Notes: generated by a model not told the origin, from the letters alone. DNA of 64,000 bases from an uncultured bacterium (GCA_946611605.1 CAMODU010000001.1:170-64169), one strand, 5' to 3'; counted from the first letter of the stretch, positions 19,501 through 61,409 are shown. A program made the numbers and translations.

Positions 19501-21290
19501 ATATATAAACCAGCAGTAACAAAATCATCATTTACTACTCTAGTAGTTTCACAATCTAAATGATATTGAGATGTATCTAATTGATACATATTATTATTAC
19601 TGTAATAATAATATGTTTCCCCAGGAACAAATTGTTCATCATCTTCTATTTCTTCATAGTAAGGGCATCCATTACGAGAATTACAATATCTAGAAGTTGT
19701 ATAAGTATATCTACCATTACTTTGTCGATAATATCCAGTATAGTATGAATATCTAGGAGCAACTTGATAAGTATAATATCCTTGCATTGAAGGTCCAGTA
19801 CAATCAGTTCTAGTTGTTTCTACTCTCTTTAATCCAGGACTATCAAATTGATCAAATGCATAATCCCAATTATTTCCAGATAAGCCATATTCATTTGCAT
19901 CAATCCAACTAGCATGGAAGTTTACTGCAACGGGATCATATTCACCATTTTCATTAGGTGCTACATTGAATTCAGCAAATCTTTCATATCTAATTCTATC
20001 AATTGATATAGTAACACCAGTTACATCACTTATCCAGTTATTAAATCCTTTACCATTAGGTCTATTAGTAAATGGATTATCTACAAGTAATAATTTAACC
20101 TTACCATTTTCTACAGGTACATAATGATAATAAACTATCTTATTATAATTTTCAGTAGATGAAACAGTACCAGTTAATGTAGTTCCATTATTTTGTTCTA
20201 TACCTGAATAAGATACCATAACTTTTATTAAGTTATGTGAATTATACTTATTCTTATTTTCCATAGTTGGTAATTTACTAATATCTGATGAAGCATAGTT
20301 ATAACCAGTATAATAATTTAAATCATTAACTAAATCATTAACATATAATGTTGTACCATCAGAACCAGTAGAATGTTCACTATAATCACCAGATATAATA
20401 GTTGGTTCATATGGATTTTCCTCATCTTGTAATGAGAACTCACCATTGTTAATGAATATCTTATATTGTCCATTACCCATTCTATCTAATATAGTTGGAT
20501 CATCTAAGACTAATGTATTACCTTCTACTTTATACTTATTAACTTGTAAGTCTGCTGGTTTTTGAACGAAGTCATCCCATTCAGCATATCTAGTAATAAT
20601 ATTTTCATATATATCAGTTCCTGTAGCATAAGCTACATTATAAGTATTATTAGCAGTACAATTATCTTTAAAGTTATTCATTAATACAATATTCTTAAAT
20701 GTTGAATTAACAGATGAATAAGTAATACCACCAAATAAATTGTTTTCATCTGATTTATATATGTTTTGTTTAATAATAACTGTATCAACAACTGTATTAC
20801 CAATTGTTCTAGATAAGAAACCACCTTGATAATCATTTAAATAATAATCTATATCATCATATTCAACATTCTTAATAGTTGCATTAGCTAAGTTATAAAA
20901 TAATCCATTAGTAACTGATGCATTATACAATGCATGACCTTGTCCATCAAATACACCTTGGAATGTAGTCCAGTTACCAATACTGATATCATGACCACCA
21001 AAGTTTAAATCAGCAGTAACAACATAATACTTATTAACATATATCCATGAATCATATCCTTCAAGTAATTCTTTCATGTACATGTATTCACCAGGAGTGG
21101 ATATTTCATAAGGAGATTCTTCAGTACCAGTTCCTGATTTAAAAGATGTAGCAACTACTCCATCCCATGCAGAAGAAGTAGTCTTTCTAGAATATGAGAT
21201 ACTTAAAATCCATAGTGATCCTACGGCTAAAATTAACAGCAATAACACTAGTATTTTCTTAGATTTAATCCCGTTCACTAAATCTTTCAT
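13521..21290 (-). CDS. giant (2589 aa) secreted/surface protein with central Gly-rich parallel beta-helix-type repeats (Pmp/autotransporter-passenger-like), putative adhesin or fibre protein
   Basis: N-terminal K-rich/hydrophobic signal ending ...LWILSISYSRKT. About 25-30 tandem ~21-aa repeats of the form xIYGG(G/S)NxxGxVxxTxInI. Asn/Thr/Tyr-rich flanking domains. Confidence 0.7.
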   Translation of the reverse strand: MKDLVNGIKSKKILVLLLLILAVGSLWILSISYSRKTTSSAWDGVVATSFKSGTGTEESPYEISTPGEYMYMKELLEGYDSWIYVNKYYVVTADLNFGGHDISIGNWTTFQGVFDGQGHALYNASVTNGLFYNLANATIKNVEYDDIDYYLNDYQGGFLSRTIGNTVVDTVIIKQNIYKSDENNLFGGITYSSVNSTFKNIVLMNNFKDNCTANNTYNVAYATGTDIYENIITRYAEWDDFVQKPADLQVNKYKVEGNTLVLDDPTILDRMGNGQYKIFINNGEFSLQDEENPYEPTIISGDYSEHSTGSDGTTLYVNDLVNDLNYYTGYNYASSDISKLPTMENKNKYNSHNLIKVMVSYSGIEQNNGTTLTGTVSSTENYNKIVYYHYVPVENGKVKLLLVDNPFTNRPNGKGFNNWISDVTGVTISIDRIRYERFAEFNVAPNENGEYDPVAVNFHASWIDANEYGLSGNNWDYAFDQFDSPGLKRVETTRTDCTGPSMQGYYTYQVAPRYSYYTGYYRQSNGRYTYTTSRYCNSRNGCPYYEEIEDDEQFVPGETYYYYSNNNMYQLDTSQYHLDCETTRVVNDDFVTAGLYMERDFDRGTSYAGYYDLSGNQVSGTCNQAKCTYYELLQSYDENGNRPVVDFGREYYYLVTRDTNIAYLTGDITSYWDSGNNKPFTLTGLHNGRQTTYDWSVTSNNITLYNDTTIEHLTIYNSKQFNTVDPQTSASSGGWFGSTTYYATLNANWHNLKLGRGIKQYNTNNATFDYIWGGSSSTGSSSSSTKYNMIIESGHFSSTALTLPYNTSASIYVANKTTFGSDIDKILDPDNNNLSVYYEAASSFSGTVRSTEECATDLTVKSGKFGTSQADMYTGIYVGGLTGGTHYAARKIKMEGGWVNNMIGGPLTDSSRASYNDTYIYMTGGNVDVIIGGAGRSPTYGNRIISVTGGKVNYGVLGGSNGSGSDANDGDGTVNGSSYIYIGGNATIGDDTLVSNNTKMWGIASGSVFGNGNGKSGYSGIGSNDNSYLIIDGNADIKGSVYGGGNYGATGVSSSSNTTETIINILGGTIRQDVYGGGNQNGAGTNNKSATVTINQTGGTVLGNIFGGSNVSGTIYGSTNLNIKDGTINTNVYGGGKGQNTFIAKDTNVVVGQEEILNVPTIKGNVYGGSGYGTVNGTTTNQSTAGGNTKVIVHNGIVTGSVFGGGEGSNQYTPYVLGNIEVDINGGNVTNVYGGNDLAGSHSKDNNIYLNGGTITNVFGGGNSSGVTNTHVYANGSNVTNIYGGSNNSGNVTSTTLLINAGTIGSIFGGNNKGGTCNTSNITVEGTASIGDIYGGGNEVNTATSNVSIKTHTGKINNVYGGGNSASVTTVNLDIVTGEYGNIFGGSNSSGTVNTSTINVTTGTIDNIFGGNNAGGNTITSTINYNGGRTNTIYGGGNQANSGNTTLNINNGEIGTIFGGGNSAGLDQSHVYINGGNINNIYGGSNNTGTVPSTQIEINTDGRIYKVYGGGNNADVGNTNITLTKGTITDIYGGANYASVNEDTHVDINGGTITGNIYGGGNYGVVYGNTHVNVTDVTIGGSAYAGGNGNSATVQGNTHIVVDGNTIVGTPESITPASGCVFGGGNKAFTGTELGNSTSTVDIVGGTIYGNVYGGANTSVINGNALVNIGANNLSSMDGLTKSPIYIKGHIFGGGEANAAGSEIYDWYFISVTEGTEINIDATDYDSYKIDGSFYGGGNASTSAGDSCLNIKNYGSRDNPQKNISIQRVTYATIENSSMILTGAMDRANDYDKELFAISRVPLLTLKDNSDLYLEAGANLLEVYRSVDKDDNLATVQIEDGNVTRNVDNRIYMYEGKNLNIARDQQVTDYGDVQGMSFFGMYNYDGNGHVHTGIYSHTVNNGDHVSYAETFDRGSYVLGKHQTNHDIRVNGFYSNYMDEDTLINEVKYIEPTPESSNFYMWFIGENVIEYNVNLVASKYSTLGSTELSFLEFSAPNTSFQILNSNANDVADGISLVDKDQIPRIGEGTENNVFGLSMEASNSGWLTKGKTSFYTGEPSMSGQDYYVGENSSNVPTMLFYLYHSKNISEEKELGTVRISIMAITKESALESKVRRLVINVNMSTALFQTDEYEGAMTPGDKYELFASTTTNISAKSKFSAYYSIYSENNNLYKEGYHRVLSSNIVFPTNTKITMIDYTNDEPYYYYYIVTPDEEARATNELRIHHEASYPLSNFTRMGTDDTSQKYNDEYMNSIYYDGRDSSEEFIFIVDLSDANITTDKMNSRLLIELRDDQDETLVTVLGIEHNQLTYNIYANKDSIINGVATSKNNTLYIGYNDNMDVTIDYHNSSDSGTAVIDTQYFDSKLGLQIHLETEDGHIVSGTDLTGCYFQMDGVKYYSDIDGITHMSIAEKVGNVKKWITFNTENSNLPSGDYKFVFEAFGSPDGIYFSDTSYTFEMNKTIINSKYGINPTISDNSVIFNGTNNDKSLNFNIKYNSLLSNPNTRIQMYRRTYDDYYDTDYVEVDLQDFIDQELTPSENNHEYILSGRPVASIDYSFKMKETMTTGTYRLVFKLYDNSTFIGDVTRYIIIK
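16050..18600 (-). repeat. intragenic tandem repeat array (DNA period ~63-66 bp) encoding the Gly-rich beta-helix rungs
   Basis: Recurrent ACCACCACCATA / ATATCC...ACC words on the plus strand. Boundaries are approximate. Confidence 0.5.
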
Positions 21291-21371
21291 ACCTATGCTC
21301 CCATTTTCTATTATACCTATAATTATTTTACCATAAAACGATATAAAAAGTCTTTAATAATCGCATAAAAA

Positions 21372-21393
21372 AAGAAGATATTTCTATCTTCTT
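21372..21393. terminator. rho-independent terminator separating the fibre locus from the giant gene
   Basis: AAGAAGAT-atttct-ATCTTCTT preceded by A7 (T7 on minus) and followed by TTTTAT on plus. Confidence 0.55.
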
Positions 21394-21404
21394 TTTATAA
21401 TCTA

Positions 21405-22406
21405 TTAGTCAGTTATAGCAAATTGTAAATTATAAGAAATACTAGCTCCTGTTGCATAGTTTTCACAATCGATATCTTGTCCTTCAACCCACATGTAAAT
21501 TCTCATCTTAGTTACACCTGCAGAAAGACTAAATACTTGTTTATAATCTTCAACTTTATTACCATCAGCATCTAATTCAGTACCAAATGCGGCTAATGTA
21601 GCTAAATCTGGAGTAACTAATTCTGAATTATCAGTATTAGTACCATTAACTGTTTCAATTAATGATTGAGGAGTAGTAAATGCTCCATTAATACCATAAT
21701 AAGGAGTCTTATCATTAGCAACTAATGATACACCATATGTTGATGATAATTGATTCTTAACTGTATCAGCATGTGCATCAGCATTTGGTTCCCAAATGAA
21801 TGCTTTAGCAGCAGCAGAATTGTTTAATTTAATTAACTCACCTGGAGCTTTAGATGCATCTCCAGTACCAATTTCAACAAATGCTACACGAGCAGAGTTT
21901 TGTAATCCCTTATCAGTATCTTTATTAACTACTGATGAGTTTTGAGTTAAATAAATTTGTTCATCTTTATCAACTTTTAAGAATACATCAAATGCTACAA
22001 ACTTACCATTTGCAGATGTAGTTGATGCTTCATTTTCTTTATTAGTGAAAATAGTATAATTACCTTCATCATCGTTTCCGATTACTCCACTATACATATC
22101 CATTAAATGGTTAGTAATAGCACCATTTGTAGATACAGCAGTAACTGTTGCAGGTAATATGTTATTAGCACCAGCATAACCAGATGTAATATCATCATTA
22201 GTTATAACAGTCTTCCATGTACTTGCATCAGTAGATATTTGTAATCCGTTACTAGCTTCTACTTTAACATCAATTTGATTGATTGTTACTACACGGTTAG
22301 CAGTAAACCATGCATATGTTGATGTACCTAACATTACTACAGTAATAAGTAATAATAGGATCAACAAACTTAATTTCTTTTTGTTTTTCTTTTGTTTCTT
22401 TGCCAT
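21405..22406 (-). CDS. TasA/CalY (camelysin, peptidase M73)-like secreted protein with SipW-cognate-type signal
   Basis: N-terminus MAKKQKKNKKK + hydrophobic + GTSTYAWFTAN, compared to TasA GGGTWAAFND. C-terminal ...RIYMWVEGQD...ISYNLQFAITD resembles the CalY/TasA terminal strands. GAAGGAGA RBS. Confidence 0.55.
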   Translation of the reverse strand: MAKKQKKNKKKLSLLILLLLITVVMLGTSTYAWFTANRVVTINQIDVKVEASNGLQISTDASTWKTVITNDDITSGYAGANNILPATVTAVSTNGAITNHLMDMYSGVIGNDDEGNYTIFTNKENEASTTSANGKFVAFDVFLKVDKDEQIYLTQNSSVVNKDTDKGLQNSARVAFVEIGTGDASKAPGELIKLNNSAAAKAFIWEPNADAHADTVKNQLSSTYGVSLVANDKTPYYGINGAFTTPQSLIETVNGTNTDNSELVTPDLATLAAFGTELDADGNKVEDYKQVFSLSAGVTKMRIYMWVEGQDIDCENYATGASISYNLQFAITD

Positions 22407-22408
22407 AA

Positions 22409-23131
22409 TTATTCTCCTTCTTGTTCAATATGTTCTTCTGTAATTTTCATACGCATTTTTAATTCTCCACCAATAAGTGGATCAGTACAGTCAGGATCAT
22501 CACCCTCAAGCCATACTACAATAGTCATCTTATCAAAATCACCTGGTCTGAAATTTTCTCTTTTCTCTAAGATAATAGTTCCGTTATCTCCATCGATTTC
22601 TTTGAATCTAGTAGTTCCAGGTTCTGCTTCATCTGCTATTGAATTCTTTTTAGCATATGTTACATACTCGCCATTAAGATATATTCTGAATCTAACAGCT
22701 TCATCAACATTCTTAATAACGTCATCGATTATTACTTCGTACCAATAATTTAATACGTCTTTCCCCTGATTCTCAATGAAGAAAGTATAAGCAATATAGT
22801 TTTCTCCATTATGAGAGCCTTCATAGTTTCCATCTATATCATCAGGTAACCATTTATAGGAAATATTATCCATAAATTTAATTGGTATTGCTTCGAGTTT
22901 CCTTTTAGGTTGAGAATTATTTAAGCTATCAAATATAGCAAGCCCACTATTAATTGTTTCTTGAGAATCCAATGTAATAGTAAAACTACCTTGACTATAA
23001 GCAATGCTTAATATTCCGTAAAGACATATCAAAAACAGCAATAACACTAATGATGTAATCTTTACTACTCTAGAAGTAACTTTCTTCCTTTTGACTTTAT
23101 CAGCGGTTACTATTACATTTTTACCAAACAT
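22409..23131 (-). CDS. TasA-like paralog (start trimmed to MFGKN...)
   Basis: GGTGGTGGA RBS before ATG 23131. KRKK + hydrophobic + GILSIAYSQGSF. C-terminal TIVVWLEGDDPD motif. Confidence 0.45.
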   Translation of the reverse strand: MFGKNVIVTADKVKRKKVTSRVVKITSLVLLLFLICLYGILSIAYSQGSFTITLDSQETINSGLAIFDSLNNSQPKRKLEAIPIKFMDNISYKWLPDDIDGNYEGSHNGENYIAYTFFIENQGKDVLNYWYEVIIDDVIKNVDEAVRFRIYLNGEYVTYAKKNSIADEAEPGTTRFKEIDGDNGTIILEKRENFRPGDFDKMTIVVWLEGDDPDCTDPLIGGELKMRMKITEEHIEQEGE

Positions 23132-23349
23132 AATCCACCACCACAAAATATTTCTATATGACACCCTTCTATCATACAATCTCATTATAATTCAAACACA
23201 GATTTTTATCAATATCAATTTATAATAATTATTCCTTTTTACGATACTAGTCAGTATATATTTACGTCAAATACAATATACTTTATATTATATTTACATT
23301 ATATGGTTTTTAGCATGATAAAATAATAGTATAGGAAGGGATGTATATT

Positions 23350-23946
23350 ATGAGTAATATACTAAATAATAAGCGTATTAATCTATTTATAGCACTTATA
23401 TCATTGCTATTACTCATTACAATGGTACAAAATACATATGCTAAATATGTATCTAGTGCTAATGCAGATACTAACTTCACAATAGCAACATGGGCATTCG
23501 TAATCAATAGACAAGATGTATTAAGTAATTCCAACTTTAGTAATACTATTACACCAGTATTTATCAACAATGATAATATTAAACAAGGTGTTATAGCTCC
23601 TACTTCAGAAGGATATTTTGATTTAGCAATTGATGCTTCTGGAACTGATGTATCATTTACTGAAACTATAACAGTTGCTAATTCAGTAAATAATAAAATA
23701 AGTGATTTAAAGATAACTGGATATCAAATAAATGGTGGAGATTTAGTTGAATTCACTGAAACAACAAATACCATTACTACAGATCATTTATTAAGCGATC
23801 ATACAAGAACAACTACATATCGTATATTTATTAAATGGTATGATGGCGAAGGCGAAAACATGGATAACCAAGCCGATACTCAAGCATCACTTAATGATAC
23901 TGCTAAAGTAAACGTTAATGTCGGGTTCATACAAAAAGCTAATTAG
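23350..23946 (+). CDS. TasA-like paralog (only plus-strand member)
   Basis: GGAAGGG RBS. MSNILNNKR + hydrophobic + NTYAKYVSS. C-terminal YRIFIKWYDGEGEN. Confidence 0.45.
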   Translation: MSNILNNKRINLFIALISLLLLITMVQNTYAKYVSSANADTNFTIATWAFVINRQDVLSNSNFSNTITPVFINNDNIKQGVIAPTSEGYFDLAIDASGTDVSFTETITVANSVNNKISDLKITGYQINGGDLVEFTETTNTITTDHLLSDHTRTTTYRIFIKWYDGEGENMDNQADTQASLNDTAKVNVNVGFIQKAN

Positions 23947-23955
23947 TATTACTAA

Positions 23956-24588
23956 TTAGCTATTATTTTGTGTAATTATTACTTTTATTCTTAAAGTTAT
24001 GCTGGATAAATCAGGATGACTTTTTTTATAGTTACTAGCTATTATTCCCCATCTAGTATCTTCCTCATCATCACCAGTTTCAAATGGCCATACAACATTA
24101 AAATTATATGTTGCAATACCATCATGTGAAGATATATTAGTACTAGATATTCCAACTGTAATAGTAAAAGGATAATTATTAGCTAGTTTATTTAATAACT
24201 CAGCTGATGTCATATCTCCTTCTTGCACTTCTTCTTTTCTTGATTCTCTACCCTCAACTGTTATATACGTATCATCAAATATTCTAGCTTCCAACACTTC
24301 ATATGATAATGTAGCATCTACATCACCTTGGTTTCTAGCTTGTAAGCTATATACATAATCTTCCATACCTGGGTATATACTATCAACATCTAGATTAACA
24401 TAATCTTCTACAGCTTGTTCACCTGCTTGGAATAATACATTCCACGCTCTAACATGAACATCAACCTTATTATCTACTTTAGTAGTATATATAAACCATG
24501 CAAAGGTATTACCTACAACTAAGAATAAGATGAATATTAACCTAAGAATTATAAATTTTTTATTTGTCTTCTTTCTTTGGTTCTTCAT
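23956..24588 (-). CDS. TasA-like paralog
   Basis: MKNQRKKTNKK + hydrophobic + GNTFAWFIY. C-terminal FNVVWPFETGDDEED...ITLRIKVIITQ. Confidence 0.5.
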   Translation of the reverse strand: MKNQRKKTNKKFIILRLIFILFLVVGNTFAWFIYTTKVDNKVDVHVRAWNVLFQAGEQAVEDYVNLDVDSIYPGMEDYVYSLQARNQGDVDATLSYEVLEARIFDDTYITVEGRESRKEEVQEGDMTSAELLNKLANNYPFTITVGISSTNISSHDGIATYNFNVVWPFETGDDEEDTRWGIIASNYKKSHPDLSSITLRIKVIITQNNS

Positions 24589-25123
24589 CTTCTTCAGAAT
24601 CCTTTACAAATAATCCTCTTAATAAATCAAACGCAATAGATAAACCTACTATTACAAATATTCCATAGTAGACTGTATTATTTTGCATTAATCTACCTAA
24701 GAAACTTAATATAATTGAATGATATAATACTTTACCATATATCATATCACCAGATATTTTAGGATCTTCTACATCGTTTGCTATACCTTGAGTAGTAAAT
24801 GTATATTTACCATTATTCTCATCTATTTTTATAATTCTATGTGTTATAACTATTCCTTTATTATATCCATTAGGATCACTTTTATAAGTAACATCATCAC
24901 CTACTTTATAAGTAGATACATCTTGTTTCTTAACAACTATTAAATCACCTATTTTATATTCAGGTTCCATTGATCCTGATACTACTTGGAATATATAAAA
25001 ATTACCTATAGTTAAATTGTTTTTAGTAGTTCTTTGTAATATAACAATAGCTAACATAATAATTAATAATATAGTTATAATTATTCTTATTATATTAAAA
25101 GTTTTCATCACTACTTTTTTCAT
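24560..25123 (-). CDS. sipW: signal peptidase I, SipW/ER-type (S26B)
   Basis: TM anchor then VVSGSMEPEYKIGDLIVV (Ser nucleophile), ITHRII (His), ANDVEDP, and a C-terminal TM. Confidence 0.75.
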   Translation of the reverse strand: MKKVVMKTFNIIRIIITILLIIMLAIVILQRTTKNNLTIGNFYIFQVVSGSMEPEYKIGDLIVVKKQDVSTYKVGDDVTYKSDPNGYNKGIVITHRIIKIDENNGKYTFTTQGIANDVEDPKISGDMIYGKVLYHSIILSFLGRLMQNNTVYYGIFVIVGLSIAFDLLRGLFVKDSEEDEEPKKEDK

Positions 25124-25127
25124 AATA

Positions 25128-26246
25128 TCATCCCAAATCTATATTTTCTATTCTCTCTAGATAAGCTTTAATACTAGTTGAGAACACATTTTCAATTTCA
25201 GATAAACTAGCTTCTCTTTTAAATCTAGTAATAGCTATCTTATCTCCTATTTTCTTCTTTAATTGTTCCATATCTAAATCAGTATTTAATTCTACTATTC
25301 TTTGAATTAAGTTATCAGTTATTTCTTCAACTGCTCTATCTTTATCTTCTTTAGATTTAACATTACTTAATGTATTCATAGCAACATAATCCATTAAGAA
25401 AGTATTATTAATATACTCTTTTAAGATACCATTATCTTCATAATCTTTTTTACTCTTAACTATTTTAGTATCATCATCTGTATGAGCTTGTAGATAATCC
25501 CATAGTTTCATTGCATATTGGAAGTTAGTATTCTTTAAGATAACATTAGTCTTTTTAATTGGAGGTATTACTTTAGCTACATGAGCTTTATGTAATAACT
25601 TATATGTTTCCTCAGATTGAAGCATTTTAATGTCATCTTCAAGTCTTTTAACTCTTTCCTCAATAGATAATTCACCTTGTTCTTCTTCTTTATCTATTAA
25701 AGATGAAGTATAGTAAAATTCCATTGAAATTTGTTCTTTACCTACTTTACTCTTAGCATGATATTCAGCCTTCTTTATATCCTTATAACTAGAACCATTT
25801 ACTAATGTTTTCTTTTTTAATTCTACAAAGTTAGCCATATTATTTACTAAAGTATATATTAATCTGTTTTCATATGTATCATATGATTCATCTTTATTAA
25901 TATTTAAGATTTTAGATGGTTTAACATCACCATTATCTTCAATCTTTTGAATCATATTTGTATGTTTAGCTAAATGTCTAATACTTTCAACAGTAACTCT
26001 TCTAGCTAATTCAACTTTAACTATTTCTTCTTCATTTATAATGAATCTATTTGGGTTTCTAAAAATATTATCTATATATTTAACAGTATCTTCCATTAGG
26101 TCAAGCCATTCAAAACTTGTTTCTACTTTCTTTATATCAGTAGAAATGTTTAAACTTGATCTAGTATTATTTAAGAAACTAGTTTTATTAGTTTTATGGT
26201 CATCATAATATAAATCTATTATTTTTAAATCACCCATAGATATCAT
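25128..26246 (-). CDS. hypothetical cytoplasmic protein (372 aa), candidate partner of the McrB-like NTPase
   Basis: Coiled-coil-rich, no TM or signal. No nuclease motif recognisable by eye. 2-nt spacing to the upstream ATPase gene. Confidence 0.4.
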   Translation of the reverse strand: MISMGDLKIIDLYYDDHKTNKTSFLNNTRSSLNISTDIKKVETSFEWLDLMEDTVKYIDNIFRNPNRFIINEEEIVKVELARRVTVESIRHLAKHTNMIQKIEDNGDVKPSKILNINKDESYDTYENRLIYTLVNNMANFVELKKKTLVNGSSYKDIKKAEYHAKSKVGKEQISMEFYYTSSLIDKEEEQGELSIEERVKRLEDDIKMLQSEETYKLLHKAHVAKVIPPIKKTNVILKNTNFQYAMKLWDYLQAHTDDDTKIVKSKKDYEDNGILKEYINNTFLMDYVAMNTLSNVKSKEDKDRAVEEITDNLIQRIVELNTDLDMEQLKKKIGDKIAITRFKREASLSEIENVFSTSIKAYLERIENIDLG

Positions 26247-26247
26247 C

Positions 26248-27771
26248 CTAACTCATTTTCTTAAGTCTTAATAAATATTCAGTACATTCTTTCATTTTTC
26301 CTTTACCAAATTTATTATCTAGGAATTTAACGAAATCATCTATTTCATCACGAATGTATGCAATATTTAATTGTTCAAACTTTCTTAAAATCTTTCTTGC
26401 AATGAAGTAATCTATTCCATCTACTTCATCTCCACCACATGCTACATACACAGGAACGAACTTTTTCATGTGTGCAACAATACGGTTACCAAATGCAATA
26501 CGGAAATGTTGTATTACATAGTTATCCATTTCTTCTATCTTGTCTAAATTCTCTTGATGTATAGGATAATTAGCTATAGCATCTTGAATCTTTTCATCAA
26601 AATAAGAATAGTTAATATCCATCGCTTCTGTTTCAACAGGCTCAAATACTTCACCTTTATCATTTATATCAATTGGCATAGCACGGTCATATACCTTATC
26701 AGTAACCATGAATGTTGAGTCATCGTTATTGATTGTGCCGATGTACCATACATTTGGAGGTATTTTTAATTTACCTTCAATTAATTTCTTTGGATCGTTC
26801 TTCCATGCAGATGGAACTATTTCAACAATCCATTCATCTTTATTAGGCATTTCAAGTATAGATAGCATTTCTGCAAAATAGTATTCTACACGTGAAATGT
26901 TCATTTCATCTAAGATAACTGTATATATATCATCTGTATATCCAGCTACATATAATTCTTTTAATACTTCTGTTTCATTAAACTTCTTTGTAAATTCGTT
27001 GAAGTATCCAAATAACTCAGTTCTATCACGCCAAGATGGTTGAACAGACGCAATACATGAATCATGTTTTAAGAATTTTCCCCAAGCATATGCTAAGGAA
27101 GTTTTACCTGTACCAGAGATACCTTGTAAGATTACAAGTTTAGTAGATGCTAACGATGCAATAAATAATCTAATCATATCTTCTTTATAATATAGTTTTA
27201 ATTTACTTGCAGCAAAGTTTCTAAATGCATTAACTAAATCAGGTAATTCAAATGTATTGTTATATACTTGTACTTTATAATTTTCAAATTTTTGATCAAC
27301 TTCATATAATTTAGGGAATCTTATATCAGATGCAGGATTAACAGCATCCCCTTCTTCTTGAGTAGTATCTCCTTCAGCTTCATCAGGTTTTATACCTAGA
27401 TTAGATACTTTCATTGCTAATATATCTTCTTTTTCTTTCATTAGTTTTGCAACTTCATGATTTAAATCAGATACTTCTTCTAGTAATGATTCTTGATCTA
27501 CTAATGATTTTCTAAATCTAACATATTTTCTAATTAGTAGATAAATACCAAATATAATTAAAGCAACTACTGTAACAACTATAATAATTGCTATTGCAAA
27601 GAATAACCATTCAGGTCCATTAAAATCTTGCTTATAATTATCCGCTATTCTTGAGTACGCTGAAAAATCAAATAGAGTTCTAAATCCATTTGCTATACCC
27701 TCAAATATATATTTGAAAGAGTTAAAAAATTGAGTTAAGAATTCATATAGAAATCTAAAAAATGTTTCCAT
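26248..27771 (-). CDS. membrane-anchored McrB-like (AAA_5) NTPase
   Basis: One N-terminal TM helix (WLFFAIAIIIVVTVVALIIFGIYLLI) and a coiled coil. Walker A QGISGTGKTS. Walker B VILDEMNISRVEYYFAEMLSILE parallels the McrB IIDEINRANLSKVFGEVMMLME block (recalled from memory). GGAAGGAAG RBS. Confidence 0.55.
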   Translation of the reverse strand: METFFRFLYEFLTQFFNSFKYIFEGIANGFRTLFDFSAYSRIADNYKQDFNGPEWLFFAIAIIIVVTVVALIIFGIYLLIRKYVRFRKSLVDQESLLEEVSDLNHEVAKLMKEKEDILAMKVSNLGIKPDEAEGDTTQEEGDAVNPASDIRFPKLYEVDQKFENYKVQVYNNTFELPDLVNAFRNFAASKLKLYYKEDMIRLFIASLASTKLVILQGISGTGKTSLAYAWGKFLKHDSCIASVQPSWRDRTELFGYFNEFTKKFNETEVLKELYVAGYTDDIYTVILDEMNISRVEYYFAEMLSILEMPNKDEWIVEIVPSAWKNDPKKLIEGKLKIPPNVWYIGTINNDDSTFMVTDKVYDRAMPIDINDKGEVFEPVETEAMDINYSYFDEKIQDAIANYPIHQENLDKIEEMDNYVIQHFRIAFGNRIVAHMKKFVPVYVACGGDEVDGIDYFIARKILRKFEQLNIAYIRDEIDDFVKFLDNKFGKGKMKECTEYLLRLKKMS

Positions 27772-27784
27772 ATAATCTTCCTTC

Positions 27785-28762
27785 CTACATCTTTATTATT
27801 TTGCTCTCTATCTTATCCTCATTATCCTTAATCATATCAAAAAATTCACTATCTTCATAGATAAATATATATGAAAATATTGGTAAACTATTAATTTTTC
27901 CATCAAATGTATCATCTATTATAATTGCTACATTATAACCATATTTAATTATAAGATCAAATATTTCCTTATTTTTAATATATGTAGAATATGTGATTCT
28001 TAGATGAATAAACTTTCTTGCTAATGTATTATCAATAGTACTTAATAGTCTTTTAAACTTCTTATCTTTAGCTACTAAAGTAGCAGGAATATCTATAATA
28101 TATTTTCTAGTAAAATCTAGACTAATAGCATTCTTTAATAGTTCATATGAACATTTAATTAACATGATAAATAATTTATCTTCATTTATAACTGGTGTAT
28201 TATATGCTTTATCAATAGCATATTCAGAATATAAATTAGATATTTTTATATTACTATCTAATCCTAATAAATATGTTTTTCTATATACACTTTTCTCAGT
28301 TAATATAAAATCATTTGATACTATTGAATCAAAGAATTTCTCTTTAGTTCTAGAATAATTATTTAACCATTTCTTTATTTCTTTAATAGATTCATTAGAT
28401 AGATTTAACTTTAATGTTTCATCTTTAGTTAATAAATCTAAAACTGAATCACCATCTTCTATTGGATATACATCATCTACATATGCTATATAGATAAATA
28501 ATGCTACTGCTGTTTTTAATAATTCATCTTCTTCAGATGTTTTATTTTCATTATAAACATCTAATAATTCTTTATTAAGACGAGTAACAAAATCTCTTGT
28601 TGATGTATAATTAGTTTCATTAAAATATCTAACATCTATATATTTATTAACAAATAACTTACATACTTTCTTAGGATAATTATTACCTATAACTAATCTT
28701 AAGAATTCAAGTAATTCTCTCTTAACAAACTTAATATATTTACTTATTATATTGTATTCCAT
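27785..28762 (-). CDS. hypothetical protein with possible degenerate EAL-like C-terminal domain
   Basis: Start trimmed to ATG 28762 (AGGAGTGG RBS overlapping the upstream stop). The C-terminal ~110 aa follow the EAL layout (see findings) but with the catalytic ExxE, DDFGTG and K-I-D positions substituted. Confidence 0.3.
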   Translation of the reverse strand: MEYNIISKYIKFVKRELLEFLRLVIGNNYPKKVCKLFVNKYIDVRYFNETNYTSTRDFVTRLNKELLDVYNENKTSEEDELLKTAVALFIYIAYVDDVYPIEDGDSVLDLLTKDETLKLNLSNESIKEIKKWLNNYSRTKEKFFDSIVSNDFILTEKSVYRKTYLLGLDSNIKISNLYSEYAIDKAYNTPVINEDKLFIMLIKCSYELLKNAISLDFTRKYIIDIPATLVAKDKKFKRLLSTIDNTLARKFIHLRITYSTYIKNKEIFDLIIKYGYNVAIIIDDTFDGKINSLPIFSYIFIYEDSEFFDMIKDNEDKIESKIIKM

Positions 28763-28772
28763 AAGACCACTC

Positions 28773-29693
28773 CTAATTTGGATCTTCAACATTTAGTGAA
28801 ATAATACTAGTATTATTATCAAATGGATAAGTATAATTCTTTGTTGTATCTTTCTTATAGAATCTTAAAGCAGTTGAACTTAAAGGATCTATAGGAATTC
28901 TTACACTGTTGATGTATTGTACTCCATTATAATCTGTTGTTGTGTATTGTGCATTCTTTAATACATTACTAGTATTATCAAAGAACACATCATCATTATC
29001 AAATGCTAATGTTACATATTTACTTACACATTTTGATTGATTATCTTTAGATAATTTTCTATAGGTTTTATTATCTATAACATCACCTACATTATAATCA
29101 TCAAATGCTTCAGTTATTGTACATGAGTTATTAGCATTAGTAATTTTAAATACTAAATATGTTCTATTCTTTTCATCTTCTATTTCATATGTTAAACCTT
29201 TTTTACCAACTATATATTCAAACGTAGCACTTAAAGTTTTAACATATGGAGATGTTGATTTTGCATATATTTTAATAACCATTGATTCTTGTTCATTGTA
29301 TTCTCTTTGAGGATTAACATTTATTGTAACAGTAGAAGAATGGTTAATACTTGATGCATAAACTGTTCCTTCTCCATTTGATGTTGAACATATAACATCA
29401 GATGGACATTCAAACCATACTACATATGGAATATCATAATCAGTAAAAGTAAGATTATTCTTCATAGATAATAAATCAAATGATATATCAAATGCACCTA
29501 CACCAGACCAGTTATTAATCTGATATAAAGGTTCTTTATCAGTTAATCTATTACTTGAAAAATAGAAGTTCTTACTATTCAAATAGTAATCATGATATTC
29601 TTGTACTGCATATCTTGCAAATGTATATACACCAAATCCTAATACAATAACAAGTATAATAATAATTGCAATTCTTATATTCTTCTTTTTCAT
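28773..29693 (-). CDS. secreted protein with SipW-cognate-like signal (306 aa)
   Basis: MKKKNIR + hydrophobic + GVYTFARYAV. Asn/Tyr-rich. The C-terminal motif is less clear than in its paralogs. Confidence 0.4.
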   Translation of the reverse strand: MKKKNIRIAIIIILVIVLGFGVYTFARYAVQEYHDYYLNSKNFYFSSNRLTDKEPLYQINNWSGVGAFDISFDLLSMKNNLTFTDYDIPYVVWFECPSDVICSTSNGEGTVYASSINHSSTVTINVNPQREYNEQESMVIKIYAKSTSPYVKTLSATFEYIVGKKGLTYEIEDEKNRTYLVFKITNANNSCTITEAFDDYNVGDVIDNKTYRKLSKDNQSKCVSKYVTLAFDNDDVFFDNTSNVLKNAQYTTTDYNGVQYINSVRIPIDPLSSTALRFYKKDTTKNYTYPFDNNTSIISLNVEDPN

Positions 29694-29695
29694 TA

Positions 29696-30283
29696 TTACA
29701 CAACCTGTTCTGCATTTATCTTGATGTCTACTAAATCTATATTACCTGAATAATGTTCAGGAGAATTTTCATATTGTTTAGGAAATTTAACCCATAAATA
29801 ATAAACATCTGTTTTCTTATTACTAAAATACATAGGATTAATATCATCTATTATTAGATGTTTATAGAACACTCCATTATCATCTGTAGTATATGTAGTA
29901 TTACTTACTATATCATTAGATAAATCAGGATCTTTAAACACTTTAAACTCTAATGGCATATTTGTAGTTGTAATTAATTCTATTTTATATCTTAAATCTA
30001 CATTAGCTTTCTTATTATCTTTAAAGTTAGATACATCAAATCTATACATATATGGTTCATCAGATGGTACCATACTTTCTAATTTAATACTTTGAGTTTG
30101 ATTAGTTACATCAACTATAAAGAATGCAATAGCAGGTTTAAGATTAACTTTTGTATTTGTTTCATATTTTGAATAAGTAATATTAGATGTACTAATAACT
30201 ACTCCTACTAAAACTAAAAGAACGAATAATATACTATATCGTTTGAAATATTGATTATTCATTAACTCCTTTAGTTTATTCAT
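29696..30283 (-). CDS. TasA/CalY-like paralog
   Basis: Hydrophobic + NITYSKYETN. C-terminal VYYLWVKFPKQYEN...IDLVDIKINAEQ closely parallels the CalY end ...YLWVQFEFVDDG...LELQWTFNANQ. Confidence 0.5.
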   Translation of the reverse strand: MNKLKELMNNQYFKRYSILFVLLVLVGVVISTSNITYSKYETNTKVNLKPAIAFFIVDVTNQTQSIKLESMVPSDEPYMYRFDVSNFKDNKKANVDLRYKIELITTTNMPLEFKVFKDPDLSNDIVSNTTYTTDDNGVFYKHLIIDDINPMYFSNKKTDVYYLWVKFPKQYENSPEHYSGNIDLVDIKINAEQVV

Positions 30284-30291
30284 AGTTACAC

Positions 30292-31125
30292 CTACTTAAC
30301 TCTATCTTTAATTCTCTTTTGTATTTCAGATAAATCTAAACGCATAGTATAATTTATAAACTCTTTTTGTTTATCTTCTAAATCATCTACCGTTTTCTTT
30401 TCTTCATCTATTTCCTTAATATCTTTCTTTAATTCGTTAACTTCTTTTGTTGTCATCTTATATTCATCATTTTTAGCTAACATTTTATTTATTTCAGTAA
30501 GATCTATTGTCTTAGTGAACTCTAATAATTCTTCTTTATTTATTTGAGGAGTTTCATCAGGTAATTCTACCTTAGTAATAGTTATTTCTTCTTCCTCTTC
30601 CTTCTTTTCTTCTTTCTTTTTTTCTTCAGGTTTCTTTCTTGATAATGCTATATCAAATAATACTAAAGTAATAAATAACACTAGTATTATTTGAGGTTCA
30701 GAGAATACTTTTTTCCATATACCTAACTTAGGATATATTTTAACTACCTCACCTATTATCATACTTTTAGTAATAGTTGTATCTATAGTATTATTAGCAT
30801 CACCCTTACAAGTATATTTATCTCCATCAATAAACATTACCCTGTGAGTAATAATTGAACCTTCAGATATGTAAGAAATAATATCATCTTTTTGTACATT
30901 GTTATTATCTAGTTTAACTAGAATAATATCACTTGTACTTATAGTAGGTTCCATTGAACCTGATTCAACTTGTAATACTGTGTATCCAAAGAAATTAGGA
31001 TACATATTATTAGTAAAAGTCATTACTGCTTTACCATATATTATTAGGATTAATATGGCTAATAATATATAAGTAAAAACATTAACTATATTTTTAACTA
31101 TCTTTTTAACATCAATAGTTATCAT
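30292..31125 (-). CDS. sipW: signal peptidase I, SipW-type, with ~110-aa highly charged C-terminal extension
   Basis: VESGSMEPTIS, ITHRVM, KGDANN, second TM, then EKKKEEKKEEEEE... K/E-rich tail. Confidence 0.7.
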   Translation of the reverse strand: MITIDVKKIVKNIVNVFTYILLAILILIIYGKAVMTFTNNMYPNFFGYTVLQVESGSMEPTISTSDIILVKLDNNNVQKDDIISYISEGSIITHRVMFIDGDKYTCKGDANNTIDTTITKSMIIGEVVKIYPKLGIWKKVFSEPQIILVLFITLVLFDIALSRKKPEEKKKEEKKEEEEEITITKVELPDETPQINKEELLEFTKTIDLTEINKMLAKNDEYKMTTKEVNELKKDIKEIDEEKKTVDDLEDKQKEFINYTMRLDLSEIQKRIKDRVK

Positions 31126-31151
31126 TAGCCAATCAACCCTTTCTATTTATT

Positions 31152-31706
31152 TTATTCTCCAGTATATTGTTTAAAATTACTATTTATAACAATATCTAAT
31201 GAACCACCTATTAGTTCATTATCATTTTCATTATATTCTTCTATATCATTCCAAATTATTTGTATTTTAATTTTTCTAGTTTTATCTTGATCAGATAATC
31301 TAATTACTCCTGTTAATACTTCATCACTTACTTCTTGGTTTGTTGCTTCATCTACAATTCGTAATTCTATATTTGGATGATTATCAAACTTTGTTGTATC
31401 AAATGATAAATTATATTCAACAGAAGTATCACAGTTAGATACATCTATATCAACTTCAAACTCACCAGTAGATCCAGGAGCTAAATATCCTTCTTCTGTA
31501 TGAGTACTACCTGTTACAACAAAATCATTAAATGATATACTTTGTTGCAATGTTATATTAGTATCATTTAAAGATATACTCCACTTACCTACAGTCATAA
31601 CTGTTTCAGCTCTTGCATTAGTTTCAAATAAACCATATGTCTTAACTATATTTAATGAAACTATAGCAATAAGCAATATACTAATTAGAATTAGCTTCTT
31701 CTTCAT
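31152..31706 (-). CDS. TasA-like paralog
   Basis: MKKKLILISILLIAIVSLNIVKTYGLFETN. C-terminal KIQIIWNDIEEYNEND...LDIVINSN. Confidence 0.5.
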   Translation of the reverse strand: MKKKLILISILLIAIVSLNIVKTYGLFETNARAETVMTVGKWSISLNDTNITLQQSISFNDFVVTGSTHTEEGYLAPGSTGEFEVDIDVSNCDTSVEYNLSFDTTKFDNHPNIELRIVDEATNQEVSDEVLTGVIRLSDQDKTRKIKIQIIWNDIEEYNENDNELIGGSLDIVINSNFKQYTGE

Positions 31707-32232
31707 TTACTTTCTTATTTTCCTTAACTAATTCAATAATCATCATTATTTCATAAACAATAGCAAATAATGTTGGTAATATAATTAAGAATAAGAATCC
31801 CCATTTAGATGTTAGTATTCCAAGTACAGTACCTAGTCCATGATAAACTCTAGCTGTATCTTGTTTACCTATTACATATTCACCTGATACTTTATTATCA
31901 TTAACAGTGAATGTAGATTCAAATTGAGTAACTGTTTCTTTATCTGTTACTTCACCAGTATAAATAAATACTGAACTAGTTTTAGCTGAATTATAATAGA
32001 AGATTTTATCTCCTTTATTTATCTTATTGTCACTGTTACGTTTTACAATAACTAAATCCCCTTCTTTATAATCTGGTTCTAATTGATCATTATCAATAAT
32101 AATCAAAGTATTATTACCTAATACAGTAGTTTTATAATCGTTATAAGATAATAAACATACTGATACAAATACAGCAATAATAAACCAACATGTAATTAAA
32201 AGATCAATAAATAATTTCCCTATCTTTTGCAT
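31681..32232 (-). CDS. SipW paralog lacking catalytic Ser/His (pseudo-signal-peptidase)
   Basis: Same TM...x-x-LEPDYKEGDLVIVK...C-terminal TM architecture as the two SipW proteins. However NDQLEP replaces SGSMEP, IYTGEV replaces ITHRxx, and the GDAN box is absent. Confidence 0.5.
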   Translation of the reverse strand: MQKIGKLFIDLLITCWFIIAVFVSVCLLSYNDYKTTVLGNNTLIIIDNDQLEPDYKEGDLVIVKRNSDNKINKGDKIFYYNSAKTSSVFIYTGEVTDKETVTQFESTFTVNDNKVSGEYVIGKQDTARVYHGLGTVLGILTSKWGFLFLIILPTLFAIVYEIMMIIELVKENKKVNEEEANSN

Positions 32233-32327
32233 AAATTTCTCTCCGTCCTATCCTATTTTTCTACATATACTATTTTACCATAAATAGATAGTATTTTAAA
32301 CAACTTTTAGTAAAGAGTTTTACTAAA

Positions 32328-32351
32328 AAAGAGGCATATTTATGCCTCTTT
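32328..32351 (-). terminator. rho-independent terminator upstream boundary of fibre locus
   Basis: AAAGAGGCATA-tt-TATGCCTCTTT perfect 11-bp arms followed on minus by TTTTTTAGT. Terminates gene 32359-32994. Confidence 0.55.
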
Positions 32352-32358
32352 AAATAAA

Positions 32359-32994
32359 CTATAAATTATCAACAATTAATGATGCAATACCAGCAACAAA
32401 TAAACCTAGTACTATAGCTAATAATACTGAATCAGTTAATAATACTGTAGGAACCATTACCATAGTAGCAGCAATAGCAATTATAGTGCCTTTATTCTTT
32501 TCCTTTTTCTCTTCTTTTTTCTTTTCTTGTTGCTCTTGTTTCACATTCCTATAGCTTCTATCGTAAATATCCATTAAAACACTTTCATCAATAATGATTG
32601 CCATGACTTTTTCAACAAGCACTTCAAGTTTTTTAGATAAACTATTAAGTTCTTTCTTGGTTTCTTCAACATCTGATGCAGCTTTTTCTCTCCATTCATC
32701 AATATGATTATTTCTATCATCAGCTTTCAATGCAGAATAAACTCCAGCACCAACACCTGCTATACCTTGAGCAGCGCCACCAGCAATATAAGGATCTACT
32801 TTATGAGTTTTAAGTGAATTAACATGGCTTTGTAGATTTGATAAATGCCTCCATTGAACAGAGCAATATTCATTATAAACATGATGTAGATCACGAAGTA
32901 ATTCTTGTAATTCAACTCTCTTTTTCTTTGAACTCTTACATAACTCATCTCTAACATTTAAAATTACATATGCTTTATCTTGAGTTTCTTTCAT
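32359..32994 (-). CDS. hypothetical protein with Gly-rich segment and C-terminal TM helices
   Basis: 211 aa, no known motif. Confidence 0.45.
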   Translation of the reverse strand: MKETQDKAYVILNVRDELCKSSKKKRVELQELLRDLHHVYNEYCSVQWRHLSNLQSHVNSLKTHKVDPYIAGGAAQGIAGVGAGVYSALKADDRNNHIDEWREKAASDVEETKKELNSLSKKLEVLVEKVMAIIIDESVLMDIYDRSYRNVKQEQQEKKKEEKKEKNKGTIIAIAATMVMVPTVLLTDSVLLAIVLGLFVAGIASLIVDNL

Positions 32995-33050: not shown

Positions 33051-33716
33051 TTATCTATTTCTTACTTCTCCTACTTTTTCAAGTATTCTTAATTTACCTT
33101 GTACTAAGTATTCATTAGTTTTATCATTTAAATCTTTCTTCTTAGGATGAAAATAATTATAAGATGCTTTTACTTTATCACCATAAGATAACTCTTCATA
33201 AGGTAATAAACTTTCATTAGATACAAATGGTTCTTCCATTACATCAAGTCTATATATATCTAAATCATTATCTCTTATTTGTGATAACCAGAAGTTAATT
33301 CCTTCTTCTGAACATGCAAATAATGAATGTAATCTAGATGGTATATTTGGAGTATTAATTCTTCTATATTCTTCCATTGCTGTTTCTCTCAAATTAATAC
33401 CTTCAGATAAAATAATTTCTTTAGATGCTTTTAATAAGTTTATTAATTCTTCTTGAGAGCATCCTCTTTTTAATACATATTCTATTAATTCTCCTGGATT
33501 AATTCTATCACCAAATCCACCCATTCCATATATAGATAATAGATGATTTAATTCATCAACTATATCTTTAAAGTCAGATGAATTAACAGTTGTATTCATA
33601 TCATATATTCTTTTATATATTCTATTATTAAATTTATCAGGATCTATTGTGAATTCTTTATTAGGTTCATATAAATAATCATGATTACCCAATAAATGTA
33701 AATGATACAATTCCAT
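33051..33716 (-). CDS. hypothetical cytoplasmic protein (221 aa)
   Basis: No motif recognised. Confidence 0.45.
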   Translation of the reverse strand: MELYHLHLLGNHDYLYEPNKEFTIDPDKFNNRIYKRIYDMNTTVNSSDFKDIVDELNHLLSIYGMGGFGDRINPGELIEYVLKRGCSQEELINLLKASKEIILSEGINLRETAMEEYRRINTPNIPSRLHSLFACSEEGINFWLSQIRDNDLDIYRLDVMEEPFVSNESLLPYEELSYGDKVKASYNYFHPKKKDLNDKTNEYLVQGKLRILEKVGEVRNR

Positions 33717-45454: not shown

Positions 45455-45960
45455 AAAAAACATTATCGATTTCCCCCGATAATGTAGTTTTCTATGTGGT
45501 ATATCATAAATCAATTTTACGGCTTAGGTCGAGATGTATTTCACTATATCCCACTTAATATTACTATTAAGCACTTTCGTATTATGAGATATAACTAGAT
45601 ATCTAGTTCCTCGATTGCCACTTAGTCCGCACCTTAATACCTATGACATATACACGCTAGAGGTTTTCCCTAACAATAGTGACTATCCTTATATGCTTTT
45701 GCATTTATTGTTTCATCATATGAATCCCCAACAAACACTCACATCATGTATGTTATTATATTATTTTAGTGACGGGGTTAAAGGAATTTCTAATCAGTTA
45801 CATGCCATTGTAATTATCCTAAAACCTTAAATCATTTAACCACCCAGCCCTGGCAGACCAAGCAATTAAGTGAAGTGTCATGTCTACAATTGGTAGATTT
45901 TTAGCCCTACCTTCAAATAGTATAATGACTAGCATAATGCACCACACATATGTAAATTAT
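45455..45960 (-). ncRNA. candidate large structured non-coding RNA (unclassified); ORF-free ~500-nt transcription unit between two terminators
   Basis: No ORF longer than 71 aa in six frames. GC visibly higher than flanks. Bounded on the minus strand by terminator 45968-45992 (upstream) and hairpin+T7 45461-45484 (downstream). Several internal stems. No tmRNA, RNase P or SRP signatures seen. Confidence 0.3.
45461..45484 (-). terminator. rho-independent terminator
   Basis: CATTATCG-atttcccc-CGATAATG perfect 8-bp stem followed on minus by TTTTTTTGTG. Confidence 0.55.
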
Positions 45961-45967
45961 ATCAAAA

Positions 45968-61367: not shown

Positions 61368-61409
61368 CTACTTTCTTTTTAATACAAGTATTTCTATTAT
61401 ACCATAAAA

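Follow-up and report, generated by a model that had tools for sequence, protein, structure and literature searches.

A conserved locus of uncultured gut Bacilli that may couple a SipW-dependent surface fibre to a McrBC-like GTPase module

Introduction

In the tapA-sipW-tasA operon of Bacillus subtilis and the sipW-tasA-calY operon of Bacillus cereus, a dedicated signal peptidase of the endoplasmic reticulum (ER)/archaeal type is encoded beside its substrates. There is more than one paralogous subunit, the subunits are beta-sandwiches with an acidic loop and then an alternating last strand that ends in Q or D, and the cleavage context is T, an aromatic and a small residue followed by any residue and a second aromatic. 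These features have counterparts in the locus that we describe here, which lies at positions 11847 to 32232 of a 64,000-nucleotide stretch of DNA from an uncultured bacterium (GCA_946611605.1, CAMODU010000001.1:170-64169; the whole stretch is called the window below). We think that this locus probably specifies a single conserved appendage system on the surface of uncultured low-GC Bacilli from gut and rumen, in which a SipW-dependent heteropolymeric surface fibre is coupled to a McrBC-derived motor. Unlike the Bacillus operons, it encodes two active peptidases and a dead one, as judged from their catalytic residues, together with seven or eight candidate substrates, a cytoplasmic GTPase module and a protein of 2589 amino acids (aa).

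A study of TasA processing (PMC10269814) reports an aromatic residue at P2' as the hallmark of SipW substrates and gives it as the reason why LepB cuts TasA inefficiently and why the dedicated SipW processes it instead. Related subunits of the TasA superfamily form donor-strand filaments in archaea and clostridia, among them the AbpA/AbpX bundling pili, the 0406 threads of Sulfolobus, the CanX cannulae of Pyrodictium and BsaA of Clostridium perfringens. Like the locus, these systems have several paralogues in each operon, with genes for signal peptidase I next to them. To our knowledge, TasA-type and archaeal donor-strand fibres are thought to assemble outside the cell without an energy source. 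Several TasA/BsaA paralogues and a signal peptidase in one operon have a precedent in another report (PMC11580942), where C. perfringens BsaA oligomers are described as membrane-anchored.

In McrBC systems of Type IV restriction, as in CoCoNuT systems, an AAA+ GTPase that carries Walker A and Walker B motifs and an Asn/Asp sensor assembles as a hexamer that is activated by a DUF2357 partner (McrC), and the locus likewise has such a GTPase with a DUF2357 partner. McrBC is regarded as a nucleic-acid-directed defence motor. We know of no McrBC derivative in protein assembly, and of no donor-strand-type fibre with a dedicated cytoplasmic motor. Systems that join a GTPase of this kind to signal peptidases have been mentioned in passing by one paper (Bell et al. 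2024, eLife; PMC11090510), which names them CoCoPALM in three sentences and defers the description to a later paper. Those sentences associate a McrB-like GTPase clade with signal-peptidase-family proteins and list as its features a DUF2357 McrC homologue, a fusion to an FtsB-like transmembrane (TM) and coiled-coil segment, and an NxD variant of the GTPase signature. In this sense the term was not found in the other papers searched, and the supplementary text of the CoCoNuT paper is silent on it in the sections available.

Results

A packed gene cluster conserved as a unit with BIG and Y

Listing of the open reading frames (ORFs) gave 13 packed ORFs at 21405-32232, of which 12 are on the minus strand; the plus strand holds the remaining one (23341-23946). 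This agrees, also in the coordinates, with the first-pass annotation of this DNA, which had described 13 tightly packed genes between two terminators. From S1 to D the genes form a single ten-gene run, in which S1 and A overlap by 26 nt, C and X by 20 nt, and S3 and D by 29 nt, while the other neighbours lie 1-26 nt apart. The 13 genes were labelled S1, A, S2, B, C, X, N, M, S3, D, E, F and G in transcription order. They are given below with the hairpins and with two further genes, BIG and Y; the arrow in a motif marks the predicted cleavage site, and functions are those predicted from sequence.

S1, 31681-32232, minus strand, 183 aa: pseudo-signal-peptidase, S26B homologue, with TM segments at the N- and C-terminus
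A, 31152-31706, minus strand, 184 aa: secreted protein of the beta-sandwich family, motif ..VKTYG↓LFETN; its start overlaps the S1 end by 26 nt
S2, 30292-31125, minus strand, 277 aa: ER/archaeal-type signal peptidase, predicted active, with a K/E-rich tail of ~130 aa
B, 29696-30283, minus strand, 195 aa: secreted paralogue of A, D and E, motif ..NITYS↓KYETN
C, 28773-29693, minus strand, 306 aa: secreted, motif ..VYTFA↓RY
X, 27785-28792, minus strand, 335 aa: conserved cytoplasmic protein without a TM segment
N, 26248-27771, minus strand, 507 aa: membrane-anchored McrB-like AAA+ GTPase
M, 25128-26246, minus strand, 372 aa: McrC-like partner with a DUF2357 N-domain
S3, 24560-25123, minus strand, 187 aa: ER/archaeal-type signal peptidase, predicted active; its end overlaps the D start by 29 nt
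D, 23956-24588, minus strand, 210 aa: secreted beta-sandwich, motif ..GNTFA↓WFIY, with conserved YPGM and WPxExGDDxxDTxWG
Hairpin between the convergent genes D and E, 23937-23961, both strands: perfect, bidirectional and terminator-like
E, 23341-23946, plus strand, 201 aa: secreted paralogue of A, motif ..QNTYA↓KY
F, 22409-23185, minus strand, 258 aa: membrane-anchored or secreted, with a conserved hydrophobic region (h-region) and then IIY[SN]EGRFT
G, 21405-22406, minus strand, 333 aa: candidate major subunit, motif ..STYA↓WFTAN
Hairpin and T-run after G, ~21372-21393, minus strand: AAGAAGATA-GAAA-TATCTTCTTTTTTT
Hairpin and T-run at the other boundary, ~32328-32351: AAAGAGGCATA-AATA-TGCCTCTTTTTT
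BIG, 13521-21290, minus strand, 2589 aa: surface protein with one N-terminal hydrophobic segment and then the motif SISYS/T[FWY]S
Y, 11847-13394, minus strand, 515 aa: conserved cytoplasmic helical protein, downstream of BIG

Both bounding hairpins, with their T-runs, are visible in the DNA. A consensus scan missed them because it needs at least three G-C pairs and their stems are AT-rich. The promoter and terminator scan was uninformative in this DNA (26% GC), with fewer promoter-like sites than in shuffles. An identical 13-mer, TTATGGTAAAATA, which is like a TG-extended -10 element, lies on the minus strand upstream of both S1 (32271-32283) and BIG (21324-21336). A third copy, with one mismatch, lies at 61395-61407; since 9 of 100 shuffles gave at least three matches, the repeat is weak evidence when taken alone. 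Its presence before S1 and BIG hints at a shared promoter or operator, through which the two genes may be co-regulated.

In related loci the order S1-A-S2-B-C-X-N-M-S3-D-E(-)-F-G-BIG is kept at only 40-56% identity of G, which bears out the proposal that the cluster is one conserved unit. The whole order was seen in 15 fetched loci, and many more loci break off at a contig end. F is always adjacent to G, and wherever E was found in a related locus, it runs on the strand opposite to that of the cluster. An invertible segment carrying E was considered and rejected; its flanks have only short AT-rich inverted repeats. In a permuted layout, BIG-S1-A-S2-B-G-S1-C-X-N-M-S3-D, there is a second copy of the pseudo-peptidase, and a paralogue of G lies in mid-operon (loci L050, L053, L059, L064, L081 and others).

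Does the unit end at position 21405, as had been proposed? BIG follows G in nearly all loci, and Y orthologues were present in 63 of 83 related loci, whereas conservation with the cluster does not extend to the genes beyond Y or to those upstream of S1. This puts the conserved unit at 11847-32232, which reaches ~9.5 kb past the earlier boundary. BIG had no Pfam, NCBIfam or PDB match, nor any match by phmmer against PDB sequences. Its central region (~residues 930-1740) is rich in G, N and T and carries hGG[GS]N repeats (h, hydrophobic) that are mostly 24-26 residues apart. No family match was obtained for Y.

G has 1959 database homologues, none with a Pfam domain. Its relatives occur in 430 species-level GTDB genomes, all of them uncultured gut or rumen metagenome-assembled genomes, which are labelled Bacilli, Tenericutes, Erysipelotrichaceae, 'Clostridium sp. 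CAG:1193/780/609' or 'Mycoplasma sp. CAG:877'.

Two predicted active ER/archaeal-type peptidases and a conserved pseudo-peptidase

The first-pass annotation had called S1, S2 and S3 SipW-type signal peptidases. All three are S26-type homologues and score better with TIGR02228, the ER/archaeal-type model, than with the bacterial P-type model. Scores with TIGR02228 were 93.8 bits for S3, 67.6 for S2 and 36.2 for S1, so two of the three pass its cutoff of 51.85. None reached the cutoff of the SipW equivalog NF046067 (190 bits; scores of 73.6, 62.9 and 34.6 bits). Judged by these profiles, S2 and S3 are the same type of enzyme as SipW and are not SipW orthologues.

We then compared catalytic residues in alignments of orthologues drawn from 80 related loci. 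The catalytic Ser and His were present in 68/68 and 68/68 S2 orthologues and in 43/43 and 42/43 S3 orthologues, respectively. The dyad of S2 and S3 is thus Ser-His (SGSMEP ... THR) instead of the Ser-Lys of P-type enzymes, and together with the TIGR02228 scores this sets them apart from the P-type. In S1 orthologues (n = 46), the Ser column is variable and the His column never holds His; the S1 of the window reads NDQLEP and YTGEV at these places. S1 is nevertheless related to S3 (blastp, 6e-11), and its median identity among orthologues (55%) is higher than that of S3 (51%) or S2 (46%), as expected for a maintained pseudo-enzyme and not for a decaying gene. On this residue and profile evidence, S2 and S3 are active enzymes of the ER/archaeal type and S1 is a conserved pseudo-peptidase without the catalytic Ser and His, so that the earlier count of three SipW-type peptidases holds for the family and fails for activity.

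The K/E-rich tail of S2 follows a C-terminal TM segment. Orthologues of S2 have a median of 73 aa past their last hydrophobic segment. By analogy with the topology of SipW and Sec11, the tail would be cytoplasmic.

The secreted proteins share a SipW-type cleavage context

A-G and BIG all have a Lys-rich, hydrophobic N-terminus. A hydrophobic run followed by [ST][YFW][AGS]x[FYW] was found in 6 of the 13 genes of the locus and in none of the other 46 genes of the window (Fisher p = 3.8e-5). In A-E and G the N-terminal segment ends with T-[YFW]-[AGS] and then x-[FY], whereas BIG has a T-[FWY]-S type of motif without the P2' aromatic and F has a divergent IIY[SN]EG. The motif was kept family by family in the orthologues: [ND]T[YF][AG]↓LFETN in A, T[QYF][AS]↓[RK]YE in B, T[FL][AG]↓[KR][YF] in C, NTFA↓WFIY in D, [TI]YA↓KY in E and STYA↓WFTAN in G. 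Orthologues of BIG have a single N-terminal hydrophobic segment and then [ST][FWY]S. The N-terminal signal motif that the first-pass annotation had proposed for the small proteins is thus shared and conserved.

That annotation had further likened the motif to the signals of TasA and CalY. The mature TasA chain starts at A28 (PDB 8aur, against which the TasA sequence was verified), and cleavage is therefore at TWA↓AF. By inspection, TasA and the substrates of the locus have in common the context T-[YFW]-[AGS]↓x-[FY], with small residues at -3/-1 and an aromatic residue at P2'. Weak N-terminal NCBIfam matches (Mfer763, MAG1140, the Mbov_0395 pilin-like family, TapA TIGR04087 and FliL) were taken as noise at the level of the signal peptide.

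Beyond the signal, A, B, D and E are paralogous over their full length. Comparison of orthologous families with hhalign gave probabilities of 99.9% for A and E, 95.8% for B and E, 95.4% for A and D, 91.8% for D and E and 87% for A and B. G shares only its N-terminal 35-50 residues with D (95%) and E (88%), F shares only a C-terminal block, W-x-EGDDxDC, with G (69%), and C is tied to the other families mainly by the signal motif, its hhalign matches being weak (at most 62%). A C-terminal W-x-[DE]-G or acidic loop followed by an alternating last strand, ascribed earlier to six paralogues, can be seen in A, B, D, E, F and G, and the profile-profile matches support it. The loop before the last strand reads W-V-E-G-Q-D-I-D-C-E-N in G (residues ~306-320), W-L-E-G-D-D-P-D-C-T-D in F and W-P-x-E-x-G-D-D-x-x-D-T-x-W-G in D, and its Cys is invariant among 43 G-family sequences. 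Cannulae polymerise in a Ca-dependent way, of which the acidic loops of A, D, E, F and G are reminiscent, and by analogy with cannulae (PMC12518558) the loop may be a Ca2+ (metal) site.

Confident AlphaFold2 models of G (per-residue confidence score [pLDDT] 86, predicted template modelling score [pTM] 0.83) and D (pLDDT 84) are both beta-sandwiches with a few flanking helices, in keeping with the fold that had been expected. In these models the N-terminal segment is rendered as one long helix that continues into the conserved motif. Within G and within D, no part is more conserved than the mature N-terminal strand, as expected for a donor strand. G is weakly similar in structure to the 0406 thread, the TasA fibre and CanX; a Foldseek search of the G model against the PDB gave noise only, and phmmer found no match to G among PDB sequences. 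D is a generic beta-sandwich, to which membrane-anchored envelope proteins of viruses, lectin domains and CUB domains come closest. An exhaustive profile search of the D family (512 representatives) returned close family members only and no bridge to annotated families.

Many D-family proteins are ~390-460 aa long and have an extra region of ~200 aa after the D domain, or in a few cases before it (P0351, P0354, P0378, P0396 and others).

A membrane-anchored McrB-like GTPase and its partner lie within the operon

The NTPase (nucleoside triphosphatase) module that had been noted inside the cluster is present, and it is not a new kind of module: it is a McrBC derivative of a sort already flagged as CoCoPALM in the literature. 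N matches McrB weakly (NCBIfam, 4e-5; PDB 6hz4/6ut6, 4e-4) and the PADLOC defence-candidate model PDC-M26A, which is CoCoNuT-like, strongly (6.5e-37), so its GTPase domain is far nearer to the CoCoNuT-like model than to canonical McrB. Its N-terminus consists of a conserved segment, one TM segment (~residues 55-80) and a charged helical linker that leads into the AAA+ domain. These three parts are more than 90% conserved, as are the motifs of the AAA+ domain: Walker A GISGTGKTS, Walker B VILDEMN and the sensor TINNDDST, an invariant motif that reads as NxD followed by D or as NxxD.

M matches DUF2357, the McrC N-domain, over residues 28-157 (Pfam, 8.2e-10). In searches with hidden Markov models, the only kind made for it, no PD-(D/E)xK nuclease was detected in M, and there was no other family or PDB match. 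X had no match in Pfam, NCBIfam, PADLOC or the PDB, and none was found with an X profile against the PDB or with Pfam on 20 X orthologues. One X member gave a single match to EAL (E 0.012), which we dismissed. These searches thus detected no relatives of X outside the cluster. X is syntenic in 39 loci. From these profile matches, the embedded NTPase is a membrane-anchored McrB-like GTPase with a McrC-like DUF2357 partner that has no detectable nuclease.

N is the most conserved protein of the cluster (median identity 76.5%) and M the next (66.7%), which is unlike a mobile defence island. The position of X-N-M between C and S3 is fixed, even at 40% G identity. The locus thus differs from McrBC and CoCoNuT systems in that a membrane anchor replaces the DNA/RNA-binding domain, no nuclease was detected, and the module has a fixed place in an operon of secreted proteins and not in a defence island.

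How does the locus compare with CoCoPALM? As in those systems, the DNA-binding domain of the McrB-like GTPase is replaced by an N-terminal TM segment and a helical linker. The GTPase is accompanied by a DUF2357 McrC homologue, and three signal-peptidase-family proteins are encoded in the same operon with conserved synteny. The locus therefore fits the CoCoPALM systems named by Bell et al. 2024. The three sentences of that paper say nothing of a signal motif of the TasA type, of seven beta-sandwich substrates that are paralogous, of a pseudo-peptidase, of a giant protein with repeats, or of X and Y.

Other features of the window

Upstream of the locus on the minus strand are a DUF2441 protein (33051-33716) and a 211-aa protein with a C-terminal membrane segment (32359-32994); neither is conserved beside the cluster in related loci. 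ORFs of 64-118 aa at 22392-22748 (plus), 23310-23570 (minus) and 28164-28358 (plus) overlap much longer ORFs on the opposite strand and are presumed spurious. At 45480-45961 (minus) there is a full-length Ornate Large Extremophilic (OLE) RNA (RF01071; 204 bits, E 6e-56). Its host here is a gut or rumen Bacilli lineage with an apparently reduced genome.

Discussion

Our data suggest the following route of assembly. After Sec export, the subunits would be cleaved by S2 and S3, and the conserved N-terminal strand freed in this way would insert into a neighbouring subunit, by analogy with donor-strand polymerisation of the TasA-superfamily type. The product would be a heteropolymeric fibre whose major subunit is G; the small paralogues would serve in it as minor, adaptor or terminator subunits, and BIG would be a giant adhesin on the fibre. 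S1 would bind signal peptides without cleaving them and may hold an uncleaved subunit, as a holder or anchor. A membrane-tethered N hexamer, with M as its shaft and with X, Y and the tail of S2, would make up a module, driven by GTP, that acts from the cytoplasmic side to gate or power assembly and would correspond to the CoCoPALM idea of Bell et al. 2024. Taken as a whole, this would be a surface-filament machine of a class not described before, powered by nucleoside triphosphate: a membrane-tethered McrB-type GTPase ring and a nuclease-less McrC-like shaft would be co-opted from restriction systems to gate or drive the orderly assembly of a SipW-processed, TasA-superfamily heteropolymeric fibre that bears a giant adhesin, with a pseudo-signal-peptidase as holder or anchor, in a system widespread among uncultured gut Bacilli with reduced genomes. 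In this full form we offer the model tentatively, as a possibility less secure than the existence of the appendage system itself.

Several results weigh against a TasA-type fibre coupled to a motor. PF12389 (Peptidase_M73), which is present in all 120 homologues of bona fide TasA among the matches listed, was matched neither by the proteins of the window (E<=0.1) nor by 126 orthologues (E<=1). Comparison of A-G by hhalign with a 112-sequence TasA alignment gave 0.3-4.5%, no better than controls; the alignment contains Bacillaceae only, and remote homology to TasA may escape this test. With TIGR04088, the model of the SipW-cognate signal (cutoff 19 bits), A-F gave no match and G scored 15.3 bits, below threshold. 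Of the 43 G orthologues, 14 matched this model at E<=1 (best 0.0037), and the Joint Genome Institute (JGI) names some G orthologues by it. Membership of A-G in the TasA/camelysin family, to whose proteins the first-pass annotation had likened them, is thus not supported by any sequence test; the likeness of their signals to those of TasA and CalY stands in the cleavage context, and in the profile it is sub-threshold and limited to G. As for the motor, N had no match to DivIC/FtsB in hmmscan (E<=0.1), and a coiled coil and FtsB-likeness of N are putative.

The motor also lacks a counterpart in a short form of the locus, F-G-Y-like-two unknown genes-peptidase-BIG, which has no N or M within 10 kb in at least 18 loci. 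In one example (L049; Mycoplasma sp. CAG:877, HF992493.1, 9231-20954), F and G are followed by proteins of 555 aa (Y-like), 133 aa and 468 aa, a 417-aa peptidase and BIG. The 468-aa protein has a Ser/Thr/Asn-rich N-terminal region and a C-terminal hydrophobic segment followed by an acidic tail, and the upstream neighbours of the short form are a MacB/FtsX ATP-binding cassette (ABC) transporter. Since N and M are not nearby, the core would be F-G-peptidase-BIG-Y, and the motor may not be needed for it. The McrBC-like module, with A-E, S1 and S3, would then be either an elaboration of this core or encoded elsewhere in short-form genomes.

Could A-G form no fibre at all? They might be accessory factors, either anchored in the membrane or released, that export, fold and display BIG as chaperones, as anchors or as a surface lattice, with the peptidases and the GTPase acting as a machine for the secretion or anchoring of BIG. 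This would agree with the linkage of BIG to the cluster in almost every locus, with the signal motif that BIG shares, with the minimal form F-G-Y-peptidase-BIG, with the resemblance of D to membrane-anchored viral envelope proteins and lectin and CUB domains as a generic beta-sandwich, and with the single long N-terminal helix in the AlphaFold2 models. However, G is the most widespread component, and its best, though weak, structural matches are fibre subunits. The small residues at -3/-1 are conserved, as cleavage predicts, and conservation in G and D peaks in the mature N-terminal strand, as it would for a donor strand. We consider this explanation unlikely, although it is the one that competes most seriously with a SipW-dependent fibre.

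A logic like that of type IV filaments would have the hydrophobic N-terminal helices retained in the filament core, the subunits extracted from the membrane by a hexameric GTPase, and the S26 homologues acting mainly as scaffolds. Many pilin-like paralogues with conserved hydrophobic N-terminal helices, a membrane-associated hexameric NTPase and a peptidase do occur together here, the predicted helix runs into the conserved motif, and one peptidase paralogue is inactive. Yet the motif lies after the hydrophobic segment and not before it, where it fits cleavage by signal peptidase I (T at -3; A, G or S at -1); S2 and S3 keep the full catalytic dyad essentially throughout their orthologues; and general Pfam and NCBIfam scans revealed no prepilin peptidase, PilB/PilC-type ATPase or platform gene in the cluster. 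We find such a mechanism improbable.

Chance juxtaposition, in which X-N-M would be a McrBC-like defence module (Type IV restriction or CoCoNuT-like) that acts on nucleic acids and was inserted into a SipW-type secreted-protein locus, is about as improbable: N does match McrB and PDC-M26A, M does carry DUF2357 and short-form loci do lack N and M, but the place of McrB's DNA-binding domain is taken in N by a TM anchor, M has no detected nuclease, X-N-M keeps its place between C and S3 down to 40% G identity, N and M are the best-conserved proteins of a cluster whereas defence islands are typically patchy, and Bell et al., in the sentences that they devote to it, independently tie the GTPase clade to signal-peptidase proteins.

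A SipW-dependent heteropolymeric fibre coupled to a McrBC-derived motor remains the reading that we prefer. If it is true, the locus would hold two firsts: a McrBC derivative that acts on protein export or assembly and not on nucleic acids, and a donor-strand fibre that has a cytoplasmic motor of its own. Their union in one conserved operon, with a dead signal peptidase under purifying selection, would challenge both the view that such fibres need no energy source outside the cell to assemble and the view of McrBC as a defence motor. It would also provide the CoCoPALM systems, which so far have a name and no description, with a concrete model that can be tested. With a relative of the main-subunit candidate encoded in 430 species-level genomes, the system would be a surface structure that typifies a large group of uncultured Bacilli from gut and rumen, and a candidate determinant of the attachment of these reduced-genome organisms to hosts, particles or partner cells.

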